From: a virus
Taxonomy: Duplodnaviria; Heunggongvirae; Uroviricota; Caudoviricetes
Direction: 5' to 3' (one strand)
Length of the DNA stretch: 51,583 nucleotides
Virus record (IMG/VR): IMGVR_UViG_2512047041_000005
Span: 1 to 51,583 of that record
Under the pieces are notes generated by a model, which ran no database searches, had not been told where the DNA came from, and saw only the letters and a list, made by a program, of their open reading frames with translations. The position numbers and the translations under genes are program-made. Below, in pieces: positions 4,708-47,881 of the stretch (position 1 is its first letter; each line of letters opens with the position of its first letter).

Positions 4708-5004
4708 TTATACCTCTGAATCAATATCAGCCTGATGGTGAGCAATGGTTTCAACTATGTACCGGATGTGTTCTGCCATGCGCTCCTGAAACTCAACATC
4801 GTCATCAAACGCACGGGTAATGGCTTTTTTGCTGGCCCCGTGGCGTTGTAAATGATCGATGCATAGCGATTCAAACAGGTGCTGGGGCAGGCCTTTTTCC
4901 ATGTCGTCTGCCAGTTCTGCCTCTTTCTCTTCACGGGCGATCTGCTGGTAGTGACGCGCCCAGCTCTGAGCCTCAAGACGATCCTGAATGTAATAAGCGT
5001 TCAT
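4708..5004 (-). CDS. gam: Gam (RecBCD inhibitor), short form
   Basis: 98 aa [31 protein letters not shown]...; matches lambda GamS; upstream [13 protein letters not shown] is in another frame. Confidence 0.9.
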
Positions 5005-5079
5005 GGCTGAACTCCTGAAAATGGCTGTGAAAATATCGCCCGCGAAATGCCAGGCTGATTAGGAAAACAGGAAAGGGGG

Positions 5080-5223
5080 TTAGTGAATGCTTTTGCTTGA
5101 TCTCAGTTTCAGTATTAATATCCATTTTTTATAAGCGTCGACGGCCTCACGAAACATCTTTTCATCGCCAATAAAAGTGGCGATAGTGAATTTAGTCTGG
5201 ATAGCCATAATTGTTTGATCCAT
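5080..5223 (-). CDS. kil: Kil (host division inhibitor)
   Basis: 47 aa from internal ATG: [47 protein letters not shown], as lambda Kil. Confidence 0.8.
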
Positions 5224-5356
5224 TTTTTGGGACTCCTGGCTGATTGAGTATGTCGATAAGGCGTTTCCATCCGTCACGTAATTTACGGGTGATTCGTTCA
5301 AGTAAAGATTCGGAAGGGCAGCCAGCAACAGGCCACCCTGCAATGGCATATTGCAT
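5192..5356 (-). CDS. cIII: cIII (FtsH inhibitor)
   Basis: 54-codon ORF below the track's 60-aa cut-off: [54 protein letters not shown], overlapping kil start as in lambda. Confidence 0.7.
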   Translation of the reverse strand: MQYAIAGWPVAGCPSESLLERITRKLRDGWKRLIDILNQPGVPKNGSNNYGYPD

Positions 5357-5428
5357 GGTGTGCTCCTTATTTATACATAACGAAAAACGCCTCGAGTGAA
5401 GCGTAATTGGTATGCGGTAACGCCGCGC

Positions 5429-5917: not shown

Positions 5918-6244
5918 ATGACTAAAAATACTCGTTTTTCCCCCGAAGTCCGTCAACGGGCAGTCCGTATGGTTCTGGAAAGTCAGAGCGAATATGACTC
6001 ACAATGGGCGACAATTTGTTCCATTGCTCCAAAGATTGGCTGTACGCCGGAGACTCTGCGTGTCTGGGTTCGCCAGCATGAGCGGGATACCGGGGGCGGT
6101 GATGGAGGGCTCACCACCGCTGAACGTCAGCGTCTGAAAGAGCTGGAACGTGAAAATCGTGAACTGCGCCGCAGTAACGATATCCTTCGCCAGGCTTCCG
6201 CTTATTTTGCGAAGGCGGAGTTCGACCGCCTCTGGAAAAAATGA
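5918..6244 (+). CDS. IS629 transposase OrfA
   Basis: 108 aa HTH/leucine-zipper OrfA ([50 protein letters not shown]...). Confidence 0.9.
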
Positions 6245-7131
6245 TGCCACTGCTGGATAAGCTGCGTGAGCAGTACGGGGTCGGACCGCTATGCAGCGAA
6301 CTGCATATTGCCCCGTCAACGTATTACCACTGTCAGCAACAGCGACATCATCCGGATAAACGCAGTGCCCGTGCGCAGCGCGATGACTGGCTGAAGAAAG
6401 AGATACAGCGCGTATACGATGAAAATCACAAGGTATACGGTGTGCGTAAAGTCTGGCGTCAGTTGTTACGGGAAGGTATCAGAGTGGCCAGATGCACTGT
6501 GGCACGTCTCATGGCGGTTATGGGACTTGCCGGTGTTCTCCGGGGTAAAAAGGTCCGTACGACCATCAGCCGGAAAGCCGTTGCCGCAGGCGACCGCGTA
6601 AACCGTCAGTTCGTGGCAGAACGACCTGACCAGCTGTGGGTGGCTGATTTTACTTACGTCAGCACATGGCGGGGCTTCGTCTATGTGGCGTTCATCATTG
6701 ATGTGTTTGCCGGATACATCGTGGGGTGGCGGGTCTCATCGTCCATGGAAACGACATTCGTGCTGGATGCACTGGAGCAGGCGTTATGGGCCCGTCGACC
6801 GTCCGGCACGGTCCATCACAGTGATAAAGGTTCTCAGTATGTATCGCTGGCCTACACACAGCGGCTTAAGGAAGCCGGATTACTGGCATCAACAGGAAGT
6901 ACAGGCGACTCGTATGACAACGCGATGGCGGAGAGCATCAATGGTCTTTACAAAGCGGAGGTAATACACCGTAAGAGCTGGAAAAACCGTGCAGAAGTGG
7001 AACTGGCCACACTCACGTGGGTGGACTGGTATAACAATCGACGATTGCTGGAAAGGCTGGGCCATACTCCTCCGGCAGAAGCAGAAAAAGCTTATTATGC
7101 TTCCATCGGAAACGATGATCTGGCAGCCTGA
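6241..7131 (+). CDS. IS629 transposase OrfB (DDE catalytic domain)
   Basis: 296 aa rve-type integrase core; overlaps orfA as in IS3-family frameshift pairs. Confidence 0.9.
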
Positions 7132-9838: not shown

Positions 9839-10270
9839 ATGCGTAAATTATGTGCTGTTATTCTGTCCGCAGTAGTCTGGCTGGTTGCCGCTGGTACGCC
9901 AGCGAGCGCAGCAGAGCATCAGTCCACACTAAGCGCCGGGTATCTTCAGACCCATACTGATATGCCAGGCAGTGATGACCTGAAGGGCATTAACGTGAAA
10001 TACCGTTATGAATTTACGGACACGCTGGGGCTGGTGACGTCATTCAGTTATGCCAATGCCAAAGATGAGCAAAAAACGCATTACAGCGATACCCGCTGGC
10101 ATGAAGATTCCGTGCGTAACCGCTGGTTCAGCATGATGGCGGGGCCATCTGTACGCGTGAATGAATGGTTCAGTGCTTATGCGATGGCAGGTGTGGCTTA
10201 CAGCCGTGTTTCGACGTTCTCCGGGGATTATCTCCGCGTAACTGACAACAAGGGGAAAACGCACGATGTG
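9839..10270 (+). pseudogene. lom: lom (Ail/Lom outer-membrane protein), 5' fragment
   Basis: Signal peptide and Lom-like beta-barrel N-terminal part; reading leaves Lom homology at about 10270 where the Mu-like element begins. Confidence 0.8.
10265..10270. repeat. Left copy of target-site duplication (ATGTGC)
   Basis: Same hexamer at 47651-47656; boundary is ambiguous by up to 3 nt because the element starts TGA. Confidence 0.5.
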
Positions 10271-10349
10271 CTGATGCGCCGCGCGATAAATGCACTCTAT
10301 CTTGTGCGATAAATGGCATCCACGCGGCGTTTCATTATTTGAAAAAGAA

Positions 10350-10922
10350 TTACATTTCAGGTTGCGTTATGACAGTCCCAACAGGGTGATAGCGGTAGAT
10401 CGTTGACAGTCCAATATCATAGATAATTGCCAGCCGCTTTCTGTCATACCCTTTCTGGAGCAATCTTGCGATCTGCTCATGCTGCTCCTTCGTCAGTTTC
10501 GGGCGACGTCCTCCAACTCTTCCTTGTGCTCGCGCAGCAGCCAGTCCTGCCAGCGTGCGCTCAACTATCAGTTCACGCTCCATTTCTGCCAGTGCACCCA
10601 TCATATGAAAAAAGAACCTTCCCATCGGAGTGCTGGTATCGATTGAATCCGTCAGACTGCGAAAATTGACACCTTTTGCGCGTAACTCTTCTGTGAGAGC
10701 AATGAGGTGTTTCATTCTTCTACCCAACCGATCCAGCTTCCAGACCACCAATGTATCCCCTCTTTTAAGGCACTTTAAAGCGCGTTTCAGGCCTGGTCGT
10801 TCCGACTTGGTTCCGCTCATTTTGTCCTCAAAAATCTGTTCACATCCTGCGCACATTAATGCATTGCGTTGCAAATCTGTGTTTTGGTCATTTGTTGACA
10901 CACGTATGTAGCCAATCAGCAT
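10350..10922 (-). CDS. Serine DNA invertase (Pin/Gin/Hin family)
   Basis: 190 aa from internal ATG: MLIGYIRVSTNDQNTDLQRNALMCAGCEQIFEDK..., close to e14 Pin / Mu Gin; C-terminal HTH. Confidence 0.9.
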   Translation of the reverse strand: MLIGYIRVSTNDQNTDLQRNALMCAGCEQIFEDKMSGTKSERPGLKRALKCLKRGDTLVVWKLDRLGRRMKHLIALTEELRAKGVNFRSLTDSIDTSTPMGRFFFHMMGALAEMERELIVERTLAGLAAARAQGRVGGRRPKLTKEQHEQIARLLQKGYDRKRLAIIYDIGLSTIYRYHPVGTVITQPEM

Positions 10923-10988
10923 TAAAAATACTCCCTTTTGAGTGGTTAAAGTACTGAGATAATGTGGGGAGGATTTGAGAGATAAACG

Positions 10989-11211
10989 TTGGTTTGGGGG
11001 AAGGCTCTGCATTGCCTGTTGGTGTACCGGTTCCGTGGCCCACCGCCACACCGCCAGAAGGCTGGTTAAAGTGCGACGGGCGCGCCTTTACAAAAGAACA
11101 ATATCCTGTTCTGGCCAGAGCCTACCCGACCCTCCGTCTTCCCGATTTACGCGGTGAGTTTATCCGTGGATGGGACGACGGGCGCAAGATTGACGAGGGG
11201 CGTAAGTTGCT
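10989..11211. repeat. Inverted repeat A (~222 bp) flanking the invertible fibre segment
   Basis: About 90 percent identical to the reverse complement of 12384-12605; encodes the shared fibre peptide GEGSALPVGVPVPWPTATPP...GWDDGRK. Confidence 0.8.
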
Positions 11212-11467
11212 TTCATGGCAGAAAGGTACACTGGTCGGCGGTCATGACGATAACGATTCTGCGCTTGATATCTCGTACATGAGTAACGGAAATAATATTG
11301 ACTATGGCGGCGATAAGGTGTTTGCGGGGAATTACCGTAGCGATTATTTGTGGTACGCAGTGCTGGGTGGAACAAACAGTCGCGCAAAAGCCGAATTAAA
11401 CGGAGCATTCTTTAACATAACCCGCCCCCGCAATATCGCGTTTAACTATATCGTGAGGGCGGCGTGA
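10994..11467 (+). CDS. Alternative tail-fibre C-terminal cassette (silent orientation)
   Basis: No ATG (track start is TTG, a Leu codon in the repeat); begins with the IR-encoded peptide and ends NIAFNYIVRAA like the expressed fibre; would fuse to the fibre after inversion. Confidence 0.6.
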   Translation: MGEGSALPVGVPVPWPTATPPEGWLKCDGRAFTKEQYPVLARAYPTLRLPDLRGEFIRGWDDGRKIDEGRKLLSWQKGTLVGGHDDNDSALDISYMSNGNNIDYGGDKVFAGNYRSDYLWYAVLGGTNSRAKAELNGAFFNITRPRNIAFNYIVRAA

Positions 11468-11473
11468 TACCGT

Positions 11474-12088
11474 TCAACTGGCAAGTGCCAGTGGCGCTTC
11501 CGGCCAGCTGATTTCAGGTGCCGTGCTGATATCCAGTGCGTTCAGCTCGTCGATATAATCCAGCACGGCGTTCAGTTTTGCCGTTTCTTCTGGTGTCAGA
11601 CTGCGACCAGCACGCAGTTTGAGGTTGATAAGATCGACGGACGCCATCGCCTGTTTCACCCGTTGCTGGCGTTGCTGTCTGGCAACCTCCAGTTCTGCGG
11701 CTCGCTGCCGTTCAGTATCGGTTACCCACGCCTCACCGTTCCAGGTATCCCATGGCGTGGCTGGCTGTTTTGTGGTGGTGTCCGCCGGGTAATCACCCGG
11801 TTGGGTAATCAGAACGGGGTTACCGTTCTCCGTGCTGTATACCGTCTCGCCGCGGTGATCAGGCACATGCTCCCACCCGTTCAGCGTGGCAGTCCGGCAA
11901 ACCACGTAACCCGAAATTGCCTCCGGCGGTGCATCGGCGCACGAATGTGCCGGAGTACCCACCCCAAGGGCGAGATACTCCACAGAGGATGAGGTGTATT
12001 CCCGGGTTTCCTCGTCATAGTGATATACAGTGATATCGCCCGCTACAGTGGCGATACCGTTTTCATCCAGAACTGCAGTGTTACTCAT
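11474..12088 (-). CDS. Tail-fibre assembly protein (Tfa/U-like chaperone)
   Basis: 204 aa directly downstream of the fibre gene; typical Tfa N-terminus MSNTAVLDENGIATVAGDITVYHYDEETREY. Confidence 0.8.
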   Translation of the reverse strand: MSNTAVLDENGIATVAGDITVYHYDEETREYTSSSVEYLALGVGTPAHSCADAPPEAISGYVVCRTATLNGWEHVPDHRGETVYSTENGNPVLITQPGDYPADTTTKQPATPWDTWNGEAWVTDTERQRAAELEVARQQRQQRVKQAMASVDLINLKLRAGRSLTPEETAKLNAVLDYIDELNALDISTAPEISWPEAPLALAS

Positions 12089-13425
12089 TAAACTGCCCTC
12101 ACAATGTAATTAAGTGCAATGCTACGGGGTCTGACAGTGATACCCTTCGCATACCCGCTTCTGATAGAGGTCAGAATAGTAGCCTGCATACCATTGTCTG
12201 ACATTGCCACGACAGGATCGCTGAATGTTGTCCCGTCCGGCATTTTAAAGCTGCCCTCACGAAGGTCTGTAATGGAATCTTCATTGTTGAATCCCATGCC
12301 GACTATCCCCGAGGTTCCCGTAGTGTCCTGGTTATAATAATCCAGCATTGCTGTTCTTAACAGCGTTGCCCCTTGTGCGGACAGCAACTTACGTCCTGTA
12401 TCAACTTTGCGCCCGTCGTCCCATCCACGGATAAACTCACCGCGTAAATCGGGAAGACGGAGGGTCGGGTAGGCTCTGGCCAGAACAGGATATTGTTCTT
12501 TTGTAAAGGCGCGCCCGTCGCACTTTAACCAGCCTGCTGGCGGTGTGGCAGTGGGCCACGGAACAGGTACACCAACGGGCAGCGCCGAGCCTTCCCCCAA
12601 ACCAAGGTAATTGAGGACATCTTTTATACTGCCCTTAGCGATAATAGCGCGACCAATAGCTGTAAGGGTTGCCAGCGCTGCTCGGTCTGCTCCGGTAAAA
12701 TAAGGCAACCGATCTGCTGCAGTGGCAAGTCCTGCCAGAGCAGTGAGCGTGGCATCTGCCGGTTGTTTTCCGTTTGCCAGATCGTATGCAGCCTTGACCG
12801 CTTTCGGTGTGGCGGCCAGTATTTCAGACGTGCTGTTGATGGCACTGCTCAATTGTACGGTGCCTTTTGCCGTCAGCGAGGCAGCAGGCACTCCCGTTAT
12901 CTGACTCCACGGGTGAGTGTGGCTGACGGGCGCCTTGCCGGCTGCAAGGTCGTATGCAGCCTTGACCGCCTTCGGCGTGGCAGCCTCAGTTTCTGATTGA
13001 CTGTCCGTGGCGCTGCTCAGTTGTACGGTGCCTTTTGCCGTCAGTGAAGCCGCAGGCACTCCCGTTATCTGACTCCACGGGTGAGTGTGGCTGGCAGGCG
13101 CCTTGCCGGCTGCCAGGTCGTATGCAGCCTTGACCGCTTTTGGTGTGGCGGCCAGCGTTTCAGAGGTGCTGTTGGTGGCACTGCTCAGTTGGGTGAACCC
13201 CTTAGCTGTCAGTGTCGCGTCCGGGTGGTTACGGGAACGTACGTGTTCAGCCAGTGACTGTGCGGCTTCCTCCGTTTTCTTCTTCAGCCATTTCGTCCTG
13301 TTTGCCAGTTGCCGGGGGGCTCGATTTGATATCCCGTCTGCACCACCCAGAACCGGATCTGATGTCTCCAGTTGATAGATATTTTCTTCCCACTTTTCTG
13401 TTTCATTCAGGTTTCCCATAATCAA
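12088..13425 (-). CDS. Tail fibre protein
   Basis: Collagen-like/ATPKAVKAAYDLA repeats (168-bp tandem units near 12900-13240), C-terminal NYIVRAV; probable ATG 6 nt inside the track ORF. Confidence 0.85.
   Translation of the reverse strand: MIMGNLNETEKWEENIYQLETSDPVLGGADGISNRAPRQLANRTKWLKKKTEEAAQSLAEHVRSRNHPDATLTAKGFTQLSSATNSTSETLAATPKAVKAAYDLAAGKAPASHTHPWSQITGVPAASLTAKGTVQLSSATDSQSETEAATPKAVKAAYDLAAGKAPVSHTHPWSQITGVPAASLTAKGTVQLSSAINSTSEILAATPKAVKAAYDLANGKQPADATLTALAGLATAADRLPYFTGADRAALATLTAIGRAIIAKGSIKDVLNYLGLGEGSALPVGVPVPWPTATPPAGWLKCDGRAFTKEQYPVLARAYPTLRLPDLRGEFIRGWDDGRKVDTGRKLLSAQGATLLRTAMLDYYNQDTTGTSGIVGMGFNNEDSITDLREGSFKMPDGTTFSDPVVAMSDNGMQATILTSIRSGYAKGITVRPRSIALNYIVRAV
12384..12605. 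repeat. Inverted repeat B, partner of 10989-11211
   Basis: Lies inside the expressed tail-fibre gene at the constant/variable boundary. Confidence 0.8.
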
Positions 13426-14000
13426 CTGCTCCCGTGGTTATAACTGCCATCATGGATGGCAGTATTGTTATAGCGAATGGCCACAGACTGATACTCCAGG
13501 CTGGCCAGATGGCAGCGGGCCGGTGCAAATGCAGCCAGCGTCTGACGCAGCATCGCGGCCTGATCGTTAGTAATGGGCTGTTTCAGAATAACGCGATAAA
13601 CTGCCCAGGCGGCTGCATCTCCATGAACAAACAGTCCGTTATAGCTGCGATTGCCGTCGTAACTGAGACGACCTGTGCCTTCAATCAGATCCACTTCACC
13701 AAAGCCAAAACGGCGGATAACTTCCCGGATTGACCACGGCGTCCCTTTATACCGGTGCAGTTCGATGGCTGCTTTTATAAGCATGCGGCGAACATCGTCC
13801 GATTCCGCCAGCTCCCAGCCATCGCCAGACAGTGAGAACTGCTCGCCCAGCCATGGCAGCGCGGAACTGTCGACGATATCGACGAGAAAGACCATCAGTA
13901 CGCTCAGGTCGATGTTATCCAGCCGTCCTGCCAGTCTTCCCAGCGTCCTGAGACTGATATCACCCTCAAGCGGTGGCGGGAGTTGTAATGGCTCAGTCAT
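13422..14000 (-). CDS. Baseplate protein (P2 gpI-like)
   Basis: 192 aa between the baseplate J-like and fibre genes. Confidence 0.65.
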   Translation of the reverse strand: MTEPLQLPPPLEGDISLRTLGRLAGRLDNIDLSVLMVFLVDIVDSSALPWLGEQFSLSGDGWELAESDDVRRMLIKAAIELHRYKGTPWSIREVIRRFGFGEVDLIEGTGRLSYDGNRSYNGLFVHGDAAAWAVYRVILKQPITNDQAAMLRQTLAAFAPARCHLASLEYQSVAIRYNNTAIHDGSYNHGSS

Positions 14001-15096
14001 CAGACACTCCAGTCATGTTAAGAGTGATTGCCGTACAGTTTGCCCATTCGTTTTCTGCCACCACCCGCAGTGCCGGTGTCACCAGTTCAACCTGGTACAC
14101 CCCGGAAACGGACAATGCACTGATAATCTGGCTGGGGACAATATCGCGCCCCAGCGTGGCGGCACGTGATGCCACCCAGTTCTGTATGGCGCTGTTAGCG
14201 GCATCTTTTACAGACCTGGCATCCTGATCACGATAGATCGTAATCCTGGCTTCAATGGTGTAATCCACCTTCACTGGTGTTTTAGCCCGCACTGTATCAG
14301 TGAGTGGCCTGACTTTCTCATCAGAGCAGAAACTCTCTACCAGCGTGAGAACACCGCCGTCCGGCAGACCGGTACTGAGCAGCGGATACAGATCTACGGT
14401 CCCGGGAACCGGGGAAAGCACAGCAACATCGACAATGTTGGGATGGGCCTGCATGGCATGAAAGCGGTATGCGCCACGGCTTCCGGCATTGGTGAATGAC
14501 TCCGGGGCCAGCCTGATACGCTCCCGGAGCCTGTCATCGTCTTCCTGTTCTGAACCGCCGGAACTGGCCGTCAGATTGCTCACCAGCAGGTCGACGTTAT
14601 CAATCTCATCGAGTAACTGACTGACCTGCGCAGGTTGCCAGCCGTTACCAGCGGTACCGGGTTCGGTACAGGTGGACGTGACATTGACCAGCAGCAATCC
14701 GGCCTTCAGTACCACATCTGTATCGGTGGCAAAAATAACGCTGTCGGAAGCGCTGACGCGGGTGCCTGCCGGGATCAGCACATCAATGGCCAGCGCCTCA
14801 TCTACGGAGAACTGGAGCGTGGTGGTGGCAGGCTGCGCGGCAAGACGGTATACACCAACCAGTTCACCGAGGTAATCAATCATCGGCTCACGGGCAAAGG
14901 CGACCAGATTCTGCTTTGCTGCCTCCTGTACCGCAACCCTGACCAGCATTTCGCGATAGGCCCACAGATCAATCAGCAGACGTTCTGCCTGTGCCGGGTA
15001 CAGCGTTTTGCCGGTATCCGCTTCATACTTCGCAATCATTTCTGCCGTGATTTTGTCGGCATCGCGTTCAATAAAATCGGGTTCTGTCAGCGCCAT
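13993..15096 (-). CDS. Baseplate J-like protein
   Basis: 367 aa; start overlaps the W-like stop (ATGGCGCTGA), canonical W/J arrangement. Confidence 0.8.
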   Translation of the reverse strand: MALTEPDFIERDADKITAEMIAKYEADTGKTLYPAQAERLLIDLWAYREMLVRVAVQEAAKQNLVAFAREPMIDYLGELVGVYRLAAQPATTTLQFSVDEALAIDVLIPAGTRVSASDSVIFATDTDVVLKAGLLLVNVTSTCTEPGTAGNGWQPAQVSQLLDEIDNVDLLVSNLTASSGGSEQEDDDRLRERIRLAPESFTNAGSRGAYRFHAMQAHPNIVDVAVLSPVPGTVDLYPLLSTGLPDGGVLTLVESFCSDEKVRPLTDTVRAKTPVKVDYTIEARITIYRDQDARSVKDAANSAIQNWVASRAATLGRDIVPSQIISALSVSGVYQVELVTPALRVVAENEWANCTAITLNMTGVSDD

Positions 15097-15434
15097 AGCA
15101 GCTCCTGAGTCCGGGTCTGTCCGTCTGAGCCTTTCCAGCTCACCCGGAGCGTAAGATGTTCGCCGTCGACGGCGGGTTTAACTGACATAAGCTGGCAGCG
15201 GGGCTCCCAGCGCCGGATGGCATCGACGGATTCGCGCACCACATGCGGAATGGCCCGGTCTACAGGCTAGTCGATATAAAGATGCAGATTGCTGCCGAAC
15301 TCCGGGCGATGCGGGTCGCTGCCGCGGGGAGTCCGCAGGATAATTTGAATCGCCTGCCGGATATCATCCAGCCCCCGGACAATTTCGCCGGGAGCCTGCA
15401 GGGCTGGTTGCCAGAATACTGAGGTTGTTTTCAT
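15087..15434 (-). pseudogene. Baseplate W-like (gp25 family) gene with in-frame amber codon
   Basis: 116 codons, ATG at about 15432-15434; reads ...FGSNLHLYID-TAG-PVDRAIPHVVRESVDAIRRWEPR...; TAG at about 15267-15269; no ORF of 60 aa or more in the track across this gap. Confidence 0.7.
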
Positions 15435-47518: not shown

Positions 47519-47822
<304 letters not shown>

Positions 47823-47881
47823 ATTAGCCAGGTAACACAGTGTTATGACAGCCCGCCGGTTCAGGCGGGCTTTTTTGTGGA

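Follow-up and report, generated by a model that had tools for sequence, protein, structure and literature searches.

Tail-fibre switches operated by deoxyribonucleic acid (DNA) invertases of the Din family have been known since the 1980s, and multi-cassette switches of the Min type since 1990–92; against this background we describe here the tail-fibre locus at positions 10350–13425 of a 51,583-nt stretch of viral DNA (IMG/VR record IMGVR_UViG_2512047041_000005), the whole of which is hereafter called the window and supplies the coordinates unless another record is named. In the G segment of phage Mu and the C segment of phage P1, served by the invertases Gin and Cin, respectively, the C-terminal part of the fibre is exchanged, the invertase gene carries the enhancer at its 5′ end, and the genes are laid out as two convergent Sv-U units with one tfa gene per tip. 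The P segment of e14, served by PinE, also carries two tfa genes (tfaP and tfaE), one per orientation. The Min system of plasmid p15B, studied by Sandmeier and colleagues in 1990–92, reportedly has six sites, 240 isomers, and psi-win, and in carotovoricin Er a Din-type invertase is said to flip a short segment of alternative fibre C-termini (work of Nguyen and colleagues in 2001). In the R64 shufflon, several C-terminal cassettes are shuffled onto one constant gene, pilV, by the tyrosine recombinase Rci acting on 19-bp sfx sites.

Closer relatives have been described in plasmids and in Escherichia coli. The invertible region of plasmid pMCR_SCKP-LL83 (MF510496) was published as 99% identical to p15B min, and the feature table of this p15B-min-like region gives one tfaE among seven small open reading frames (ORFs), together with a 573-bp pin (PMC5786510, PMC6906374). 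Reversible switching of an 'Entero_P88' prophage next to aroA in sequence type 131 (ST131) was reported by use of the polymerase chain reaction (PCR) and XmnI digestion (bioRxiv 10.1101/2022.05.07.487787). For the enteropathogenic E. coli (EPEC) strain E2348/69, three inverted repeats and three alternative C-termini were reported, with four coexisting PCR-confirmed variants and inversions of ~1.8 and 2.2 kb (Goldberg et al., PMC4272514). Neither 26-bp crossover sites nor the arrangement of the chaperone gene is described in the ST131 and EPEC reports, and the EPEC locus is likened to the present one by its description.

Positions 10300–13500 of the window are 100% identical to E. coli O7:K1 CE10 (NC_017646.1, 1294756–1297956), where, according to the record annotation, the locus is situated at the end of a ~37-kb Mu-like transposable prophage. 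Very probably, it is a site-specific inversion switch of the Din family (Gin/Cin/Pin/Hin/Min) at the end of this BcepMu-like prophage. The gene at 10350–10922 (minus strand) encodes a serine DNA invertase of 190 amino acids, which the original prediction, made from the letters of the window, had placed in the Pin/Gin family; it matches Pfam Resolvase (E = 8e-51) and HTH_7 (E = 1e-12). As in other recombinases of the Din family, a resolvase catalytic domain with the serine (Ser9 within YIRVSTNDQ, which aligns with Gin and Cin) is followed by a C-terminal helix-turn-helix. The protein is 72.6, 71.5, and 73.2% identical to Gin, Cin, and e14 PinE, respectively; compared with the invertase encoded in the p15B-min-like region of pMCR_SCKP-LL83, the identity rises to 84%. 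The gene is transcribed away from the invertible segment.

Two 26-bp sites stand in inverted orientation with an identical central AA, as is characteristic of the Din family. The invertase-proximal site (10977–11002) reads TTCCCCCAAACC AA CGTTTATCTCTC on the minus strand, with the central dinucleotide at 10989–10990, and the fibre-internal site (12592–12617) reads TTCCCCCAAACC AA GGTAATTGAGGA, with the central dinucleotide at 12604–12605, and encodes ..NYLGLGEG.. within the fibre. Both share TTCYYYYAAACC-AA-(G/C)GT with the cixL/R, gixL/R, and e14 sites, which were taken from annotated public P1, Mu, and K-12 records: P1 cixL is TTCTCTTAAACC-AA-GGTTTAGGATTG and cixR is TTCTCTTAAACC-AA-GGTATTGGATAA, the Mu site is TTCCTGTAAACC-GA-GGTTTTGGATAA, and the e14 sites are TTCTCCCAAACC-AA-CGTTTATGAAAA and TTCTCCCAAACC-AA-GGTTTTCGAGAG.

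The invertible segment of 1615 bp (10990–12604), as delimited by in-silico inversion and by natural isomers, holds both arms of an inverted repeat, tip B, the tfa gene, and tip A. Repeats of ~222 bp encoding one and the same peptide had been predicted at 10989–11211 and 12384–12605; in our repeat search they measure 229 nt and are 93% complementary, with the left arm at 10986–11214 (plus strand) and the right arm at 12380–12608 (minus strand), and no other inverted repeat of more than 22 nt was found in the 9–15 kb region. The crossover sites lie at the outer ends of the repeat. The peptide encoded by both arms, GEGSALPVGVPVPWPTATPP..., is the Pfam 'phage tail collar' domain, which belongs to the silent cassette B in the left arm and to the expressed fibre in the right arm. 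The expressed fibre ORF (12088–13425, minus strand, 445 aa) consists of a constant 5′ part (12606–13425, minus strand), in which three 168-nt Phage_fiber_2 repeats occupy 12767–13270, and runs from the collar into tip A (12088–12381, minus strand; 97 aa plus stop, ending RPRSIALNYIVRAV). On the plus strand, the silent-cassette ORF (10994–11467) runs from the collar into tip B (11213–11467; 84 aa plus stop, ending RPRNIAFNYIVRAA). The start codon of tfa (11474–12088, minus strand; 204 aa; Pfam Caudo_TAP, E = 3.5e-28) overlaps the stop of tip A. This gene is present in a single copy; a Tfa profile built from relatives detected no second tfa in the 51.6-kb window, and tip B has no tfa behind it in CE10.

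When 10990–12604 was inverted in silico at the central dinucleotide, the fibre gene read in frame into tip B, giving the exchange of the C-terminal tip that had been foreseen. Both junctions predicted for this state were then looked for in a set of 5,426 complete E. coli genomes, of which 883 match the query. Strain AR_0013 contains both flipped junctions at 100% identity and full length, and strain IAI39 contains the invertase-side junction likewise. Over 10977–12617, the flipped CE10 sequence agrees with either strain at every position (0 mismatches), as opposed to 887 mismatches for the native one, and blastn aligned 10986–12605 in reverse at 99.9% identity between collinear flanks of at least 99.4% identity. 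Moreover, the prophage lies in the same IS3/iss/Nu1/lom context as in CE10, and tip B is fused to the fibre gene. Since AR_0013 and IAI39 represent the flipped form of CE10 at the same chromosomal place, the switch has flipped in nature at the 26-bp sites, and the inverted orientation that the original prediction had proposed to look for exists. In these two genomes tfa is antisense to the fibre gene, in keeping with the prediction that the single tfa stays linked to tip A. The ST131 locus beside aroA (L008 in our set of related loci) has an invertase 100% identical to that of CE10 and the same collar cassettes.

The point of exchange was located from differences between the two arms, which occur at 11008, 11011, 11012, 11017, 11029, 11044, and 11058. 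All seven travel with the segment in the natural isomers; therefore, the exchange is confined to 10989–11007, within the 26-bp site. Flipping by RecA-dependent homologous recombination between the repeats, with an irrelevant or dead invertase, would in principle be served well enough by arms of 229 bp that are 93% identical and contain a 129-bp identical stretch, but the exchange would then be expected in the 129-bp core, whereas in nature it lies in the outermost 19 bp, outside this core and all the repeat polymorphisms. Nor does such a route agree with the match of the sites to cix, gix, and e14 sites, or with the invertase ORF, which is intact and 100% identical across many genomes. For comparison, the invertase, collar, tips, tfa, and fibre N-terminus were mapped on 50 related loci, and 120 cassettes were extracted from 42 of them; the central dinucleotide and the inner half-site GGTTT(G/A)GG(G/A)GAA are common to 119 of the 120, even where the collars are only ~75–80% identical. 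We consider the RecA route highly improbable.

A different crossover site had been guessed in the original prediction, namely the dyad AGAACA-ATATCC-TGTTCT, and the locus might accordingly be read as a novel switch that arose from a Mu/P1-like one by loss of a chaperone gene and undergoes strand exchange at this internal position. The dyad is indeed present at 11095–11112, a single tfa remains, and two relatives (L006 and L018) carry a second, partial tfa. However, the dyad simply encodes KEQYPVL of the collar, and a crossover within it is ruled out by the movement of the polymorphisms at 11008–11058 with the segment. Furthermore, the layout with one tfa is kept in relatives with two to nine cassettes and in Min-type plasmids and therefore does not reflect a recent loss in CE10. 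This origin of the locus is scarcely credible.

Returning to the Din-family switch, we propose that the invertase brings the two inverted 26-bp sites together, breaks the DNA at their central AA/TT dinucleotide, and turns the 1615-bp segment round; host Fis and an enhancer located within the opening 90 nt of the invertase gene most likely take part. The crossover falls in the ..LGLGEG.. codons just before the collar domain, so that each orientation joins the shaft in frame to one collar and tip cassette. Fibre A represents the CE10 state and fibre B the AR_0013/IAI39 state, presumably with a different receptor specificity and hence a changed host range, and the 229-bp repeat is a duplicated collar coding sequence that travels inside the segment rather than the substrate of recombination. 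The candidate enhancer, recognized by alignment to the annotated enhancer of P1 cin, corresponds to nt 19–90 of the invertase gene (10833–10904, minus strand) and shows identities of 75% (cin) and 89% (Min-like gene). Within 10833–10904, 83% of the third-codon positions agree with the Min-like gene, compared with 50% in the rest of the gene; this conservation of synonymous sites fits a conserved DNA element.

The fibre itself can be related to known structures. The collar is homologous to that of T4 gp37 (PDB 2XGF, E = 4e-14) and to the collar of a solved short tail fibre, and the shaft repeats match Mu S. Several tips have an HxH motif directly after the collar, which presumably resembles the metal-binding needle motif of T4 gp37. 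The conserved C-terminal RPRNIAFNYIVRA probably folds back against the collar, in which case the tips would be swappable inserts. Strains differ in the copy number of the 168-nt tandem repeat (Phage_fiber_2), the fibre measuring 445 aa in CE10, 533 aa in the related locus L003, and, in IAI39, 686 aa. The length of the shaft is thus uncoupled from the tip switch.

In comparison with the described systems, the CE10 locus has the same recombinase family and site consensus as the G/Gin and C/Cin switches of Mu and P1, the same exchange of the fibre C-terminal part, and an enhancer-like stretch at the same place in the invertase gene. It further resembles P1 in that the segment encloses long inverted repeats whose outer ends carry the crossover sites, and Mu in the position of the switch at the end of a transposable phage. 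In contrast to the two Sv-U units of Mu and P1, it contains one tfa, and its tips are of the collar type and not homologous to Mu or P1 Sv. The original prediction had pointed to this departure from Mu and P1; the difference is real as far as the two tfa units are concerned, but the arrangement is not unusual, being standard in the Min-type family and in related E. coli prophages. As for the e14 P segment, the invertase is 73% identical and the proximal site almost the same (TTCTCCCAAACCAACGTTTATGAAAA in e14 versus TTCCCCCAAACCAACGTTTATCTCTC in CE10), whereas e14 has a tfa gene for each orientation. Carotovoricin Er, likened to CE10 by its description, is a tailocin and not a phage, and the R64 shufflon, which has in common the supply of several C-terminal cassettes to one constant gene, works with a tyrosine recombinase, while the CE10 enzyme is a serine recombinase.

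The closest likeness is to Min, as seen in p15B and pMCR_SCKP-LL83: the invertase is the nearest one (84%), the 26-bp sites and central dinucleotide are the same, each cassette consists of a collar and a 70–95-aa tip ending RPRNIAFNYIVRA, one tfa is fused to one cassette, and the invertase points away from the segment. CE10 differs in having two sites and two cassettes and hence two states instead of hundreds, Min plasmids having up to nine cassettes; in its carrier, a BcepMu-like transposable prophage and not a P1-like plasmid; in the absence of a truncated second invertase gene; and in its Tfa, which is only 57% identical. Because it lacks multiple overlapping invertible segments and does not reside on a P1-like carrier with a psi-win fragment, we class the locus among Din-family switches as one of the Min type and do not equate it with 'the Min system'. 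It is not a new kind of switch, since Din and Min switches have long been known and the switching of its ST131 relative has been reported; apart from the chaperone question, it is a largely ordinary two-cassette switch of the Gin/Cin/Pin/Min series. The present analysis contributes the exact sites, proof from natural isomers that the segment has inverted in the CE10 lineage, a connection of Mu-like prophages with Min-type plasmids by way of the cassettes they have in common, and a more sharply posed chaperone question. Its importance is modest and lies in assigning a prophage switch widespread in E. coli to the Min branch within the Gin/Cin/Pin family.

Among the relatives, the cassette design is constant: a site, a collar, and a 70–95-aa tip ending RPRN(I/V)AFNYIVRA. 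Mu-like prophages have two or three cassettes (three in L002 and L003), and P1-like plasmids of 57–97 kb have up to nine. Tip types 2, 5, 6, 8, and 9 occur, at 80% identity or more, both in Mu-like prophages (L002, L003, L017, and L022) and in P1-like plasmids (L033–L043 and L051), so that cassettes evidently move between unrelated phage backbones. CE10 is the minimal two-cassette member of this modular Min-type family, carried on a Mu-like phage. The P1-like loci L033–L044 and L051 additionally contain an invertase fragment (the first 59 residues, 59% identical) on the opposite strand beside the full gene (7908–8084 in L042), which we take to correspond to the truncated psi-win of p15B; no such fragment was found in the CE10 window. 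The Min-like region of L042 is matched by 544 plasmids. A homology search with tip B alone gave 14 short fragments without context. A scan of contigs from one genome per species for the invertase yielded five loci, with collar cassettes beside the invertase in L011 alone, for which tfa was not found in the stretch fetched.

Loci of the CE10/Min kind have one full-length tfa each, and extra or partial copies are present in L018 and L006. In L018 (1941–2944), a second, near-full tfa (aa 1–168, 85% identical) has its own A-type tip and is inverted relative to the first. L006 (FDAARGOS_1258, 4807–5417) has two partial tfa copies, and its second unit, also with an A-type tip, is inverted. The second A-tfa unit in these loci may reflect either a true inverted duplication or a chimeric assembly that combines the two isomers of the sequenced culture.

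How a single Tfa copes with alternative tips was addressed by the linkage of tfa to tip types. In the 42 loci, tfa is fused to tip types 0 (tip A), 1, and 14 in all 33 cases and never to the other 12 of the 15 types. Where both the expressed cassette and tfa are visible, 10 isomers express the linked tip and 16 an unlinked tip; in the latter, tfa lies downstream in sense in four and antisense in 12. With three or more cassettes, two successive inversions can put an unlinked tip on the fibre while A-tfa is kept in sense, and L002 is such a case, with an unlinked tip on the fibre and A-tfa still in sense. In a two-cassette locus such as that of CE10, tfa is antisense to the late operon whenever tip B is on the fibre.

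Tips without a tfa, such as B, might fold independently, Tfa serving only the tip to which it is fused. The strict linkage just described, the antisense tfa in 12 of the 16 sequenced isomers expressing an unlinked tip, and the purifying selection on unlinked tips (pN/pS, the ratio of nonsynonymous to synonymous polymorphism, of 0.1–0.33 for those with enough divergence, computed from non-independent pairs) speak for this possibility, as do multi-fibre phages (L085, L091, and L099) with collar-type fibre genes and no tfa within 5 kb. Opposed to it is the finding that similar tips are linked to tfa elsewhere. In L058, an element with five cassettes, the tip linked to tfa is B-like (73% identical); the type 11 tip, unlinked in the 42-locus set, is 98% identical to a tfa-linked tip in L093; and tfa-linked tips in L095 and L064 resemble types 4 and 2 at 74 and 71% identity, respectively. 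In addition, types 0, 14, and 6 group together, type 1 shares HxH with types 4, 9, 11, and 12, and Tfa does not co-vary with its linked tip. That unlinked tips dispense with Tfa therefore appears unlikely to us.

A survey was also made of 79 further viral contigs (IMG/VR) with fibres of the same C-terminal frame. At single-collar loci with no invertase in the fetched stretch, a Tfa of the CE10 family follows the fibre at a distance of 0 or −3 in 25 of 28 cases, two of the three exceptions being uninformative, and some phages have several collar-type fibre genes and one tfa. Among 77 unique pairs of tip and Tfa, linked tips of <25% identity go together with ~51% identity (up to 94%) over the first 85 Tfa residues, and the correlation between tip and Tfa identity is weak (Spearman 0.19). 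The Tfa of L058 and the Min-like Tfa share 83% identity despite having unrelated linked tips. When three Tfa variants were aligned in search of a tip-specific N-terminal domain, the differences were spread along the whole protein, a result uninformative by itself, and a search with the Tfa sequence gave no significant match among solved structures. In the induced P1-like phage 813R1 (cf. vB_EcoM-673R5), tfa is antisense to the fibre gene; both records are full of frameshifts.

Since B-like tips directly precede tfa in other elements, Tfa looks generic, and we think it rather probable that it recognizes the conserved collar or the C-terminal RPRNIAFNYIVRA frame and can serve all cassettes. Docking on a conserved part instead of the variable head would mean that one copy could serve every tip. 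For the B state of CE10, this leaves several possibilities: tfa might be expressed from a promoter independent of orientation, which is conceivable; B particles might lack the chaperone and be poorly infectious or not infectious, which is more doubtful; or tip B might fold without Tfa, which we hold to be rather unlikely. By the last possibility, even collar-type tips that elsewhere always travel with Tfa can fold without it. A further, tentative idea is that the orientation of tfa forms a hidden second layer of the switch, with fully fibred, infectious particles arising only from tfa-sense isomers; if so, the flip of CE10 to B would be an ON/OFF switch of infectivity, not a change of host range. 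If, on the other hand, Tfa is generic and works in trans, the locus would offer a compact scaffold for engineering the host range of phages and tailocins by means of ~80-aa cassettes.

Several points weigh against the Din-family switch as proposed here for CE10. AR_0013 and IAI39 may descend from one single inversion event. The putative function of 10833–10904 as an enhancer and the presumed dependence on Fis are deduced from homology. Tip B has a pN/pS of 0.76, the highest of the unlinked tips, which comes from few changes in the same non-independent pairs and would fit relaxed constraint. A scan of both orientations revealed no sigma-70-like promoter for tfa, although this is a weak test because the promoter of the invertase was missed as well. 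Finally, two late genes, the W/gp25-like gene (~15087–15434) and the DUF3486 gene (record 1316700–1317245), have internal stops, and an IS3 element is inserted in the early region (record 1329558–1330735); because of these lesions the CE10 prophage is probably defective, and the switch may consequently be without phenotype there.

The same lesions, including the W/gp25-like stop that is found in AR_0013 as well, could be taken to mean that the switch is an inert fossil in CE10, which no longer flips or flips without effect. Yet none of the components, from the invertase and the pair of sites to the two cassettes and tfa, is damaged, and the same defective prophage occurs at the same site in the opposite orientation in other strains, so that flipping continued after the prophage had been acquired. 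A fossil switch is therefore quite unlikely in our judgment. A lack of phenotype in CE10 is quite possible and is compatible with the Din-family switch proposed here.

The carrier is a BcepMu-like transposable prophage, with genes for a DDE transposase, a MuB-like ATPase, Gam, GemA, Mor, head proteins, and a contractile tail of the P2/Mu type; its tail module is near-identical to that of Escherichia phage PhiKM, classified as Bcepmuvirus. It splits the lom gene of a lambdoid prophage into halves at ~9839–10273 and 47650–47823, and ATGTGCTGA is found at both lom/prophage junctions (10265–10273 and 47651–47659). In other strains, the neighbour at the invertase end of the prophage is aroA, rfaH, or a permease gene, in agreement with the transposition of such a phage. 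The prophage extends over ~10274–47650 (~37.4 kb, with approximate ends). The target duplication of Mu is 5 bp, which ATGTGCTGA, if it is a target duplication, would exceed. The flanking lambdoid prophage contains an IS3-family element, a truncated iss, and a truncated terminase large-subunit gene (window 6241–7131; record 1290374–1291587) and is a mosaic remnant.

Assemblies and annotations of the invertible region are often broken. In the RefSeq/PGAP annotation of CE10, the intact 445-aa fibre ORF (NC_017646.1 1296544–1297881) is split into a short coding sequence and three 'incomplete' pseudo-fragments, an annotation artefact of the repeats and the invertible cassette. A 1268-bp contig ascribed to 'Moraxella osloensis' (L010, CAXORL010000041.1), which carries an invertase 100% identical to that of CE10 plus a collar cassette, is probably E. 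coli contamination of that assembly. The 'partial genome' of PhiKM (PQ738613.1, L007 5002–5124) breaks within the collar repeat and there joins early genes, probably as an assembly break caused by the invertible region.

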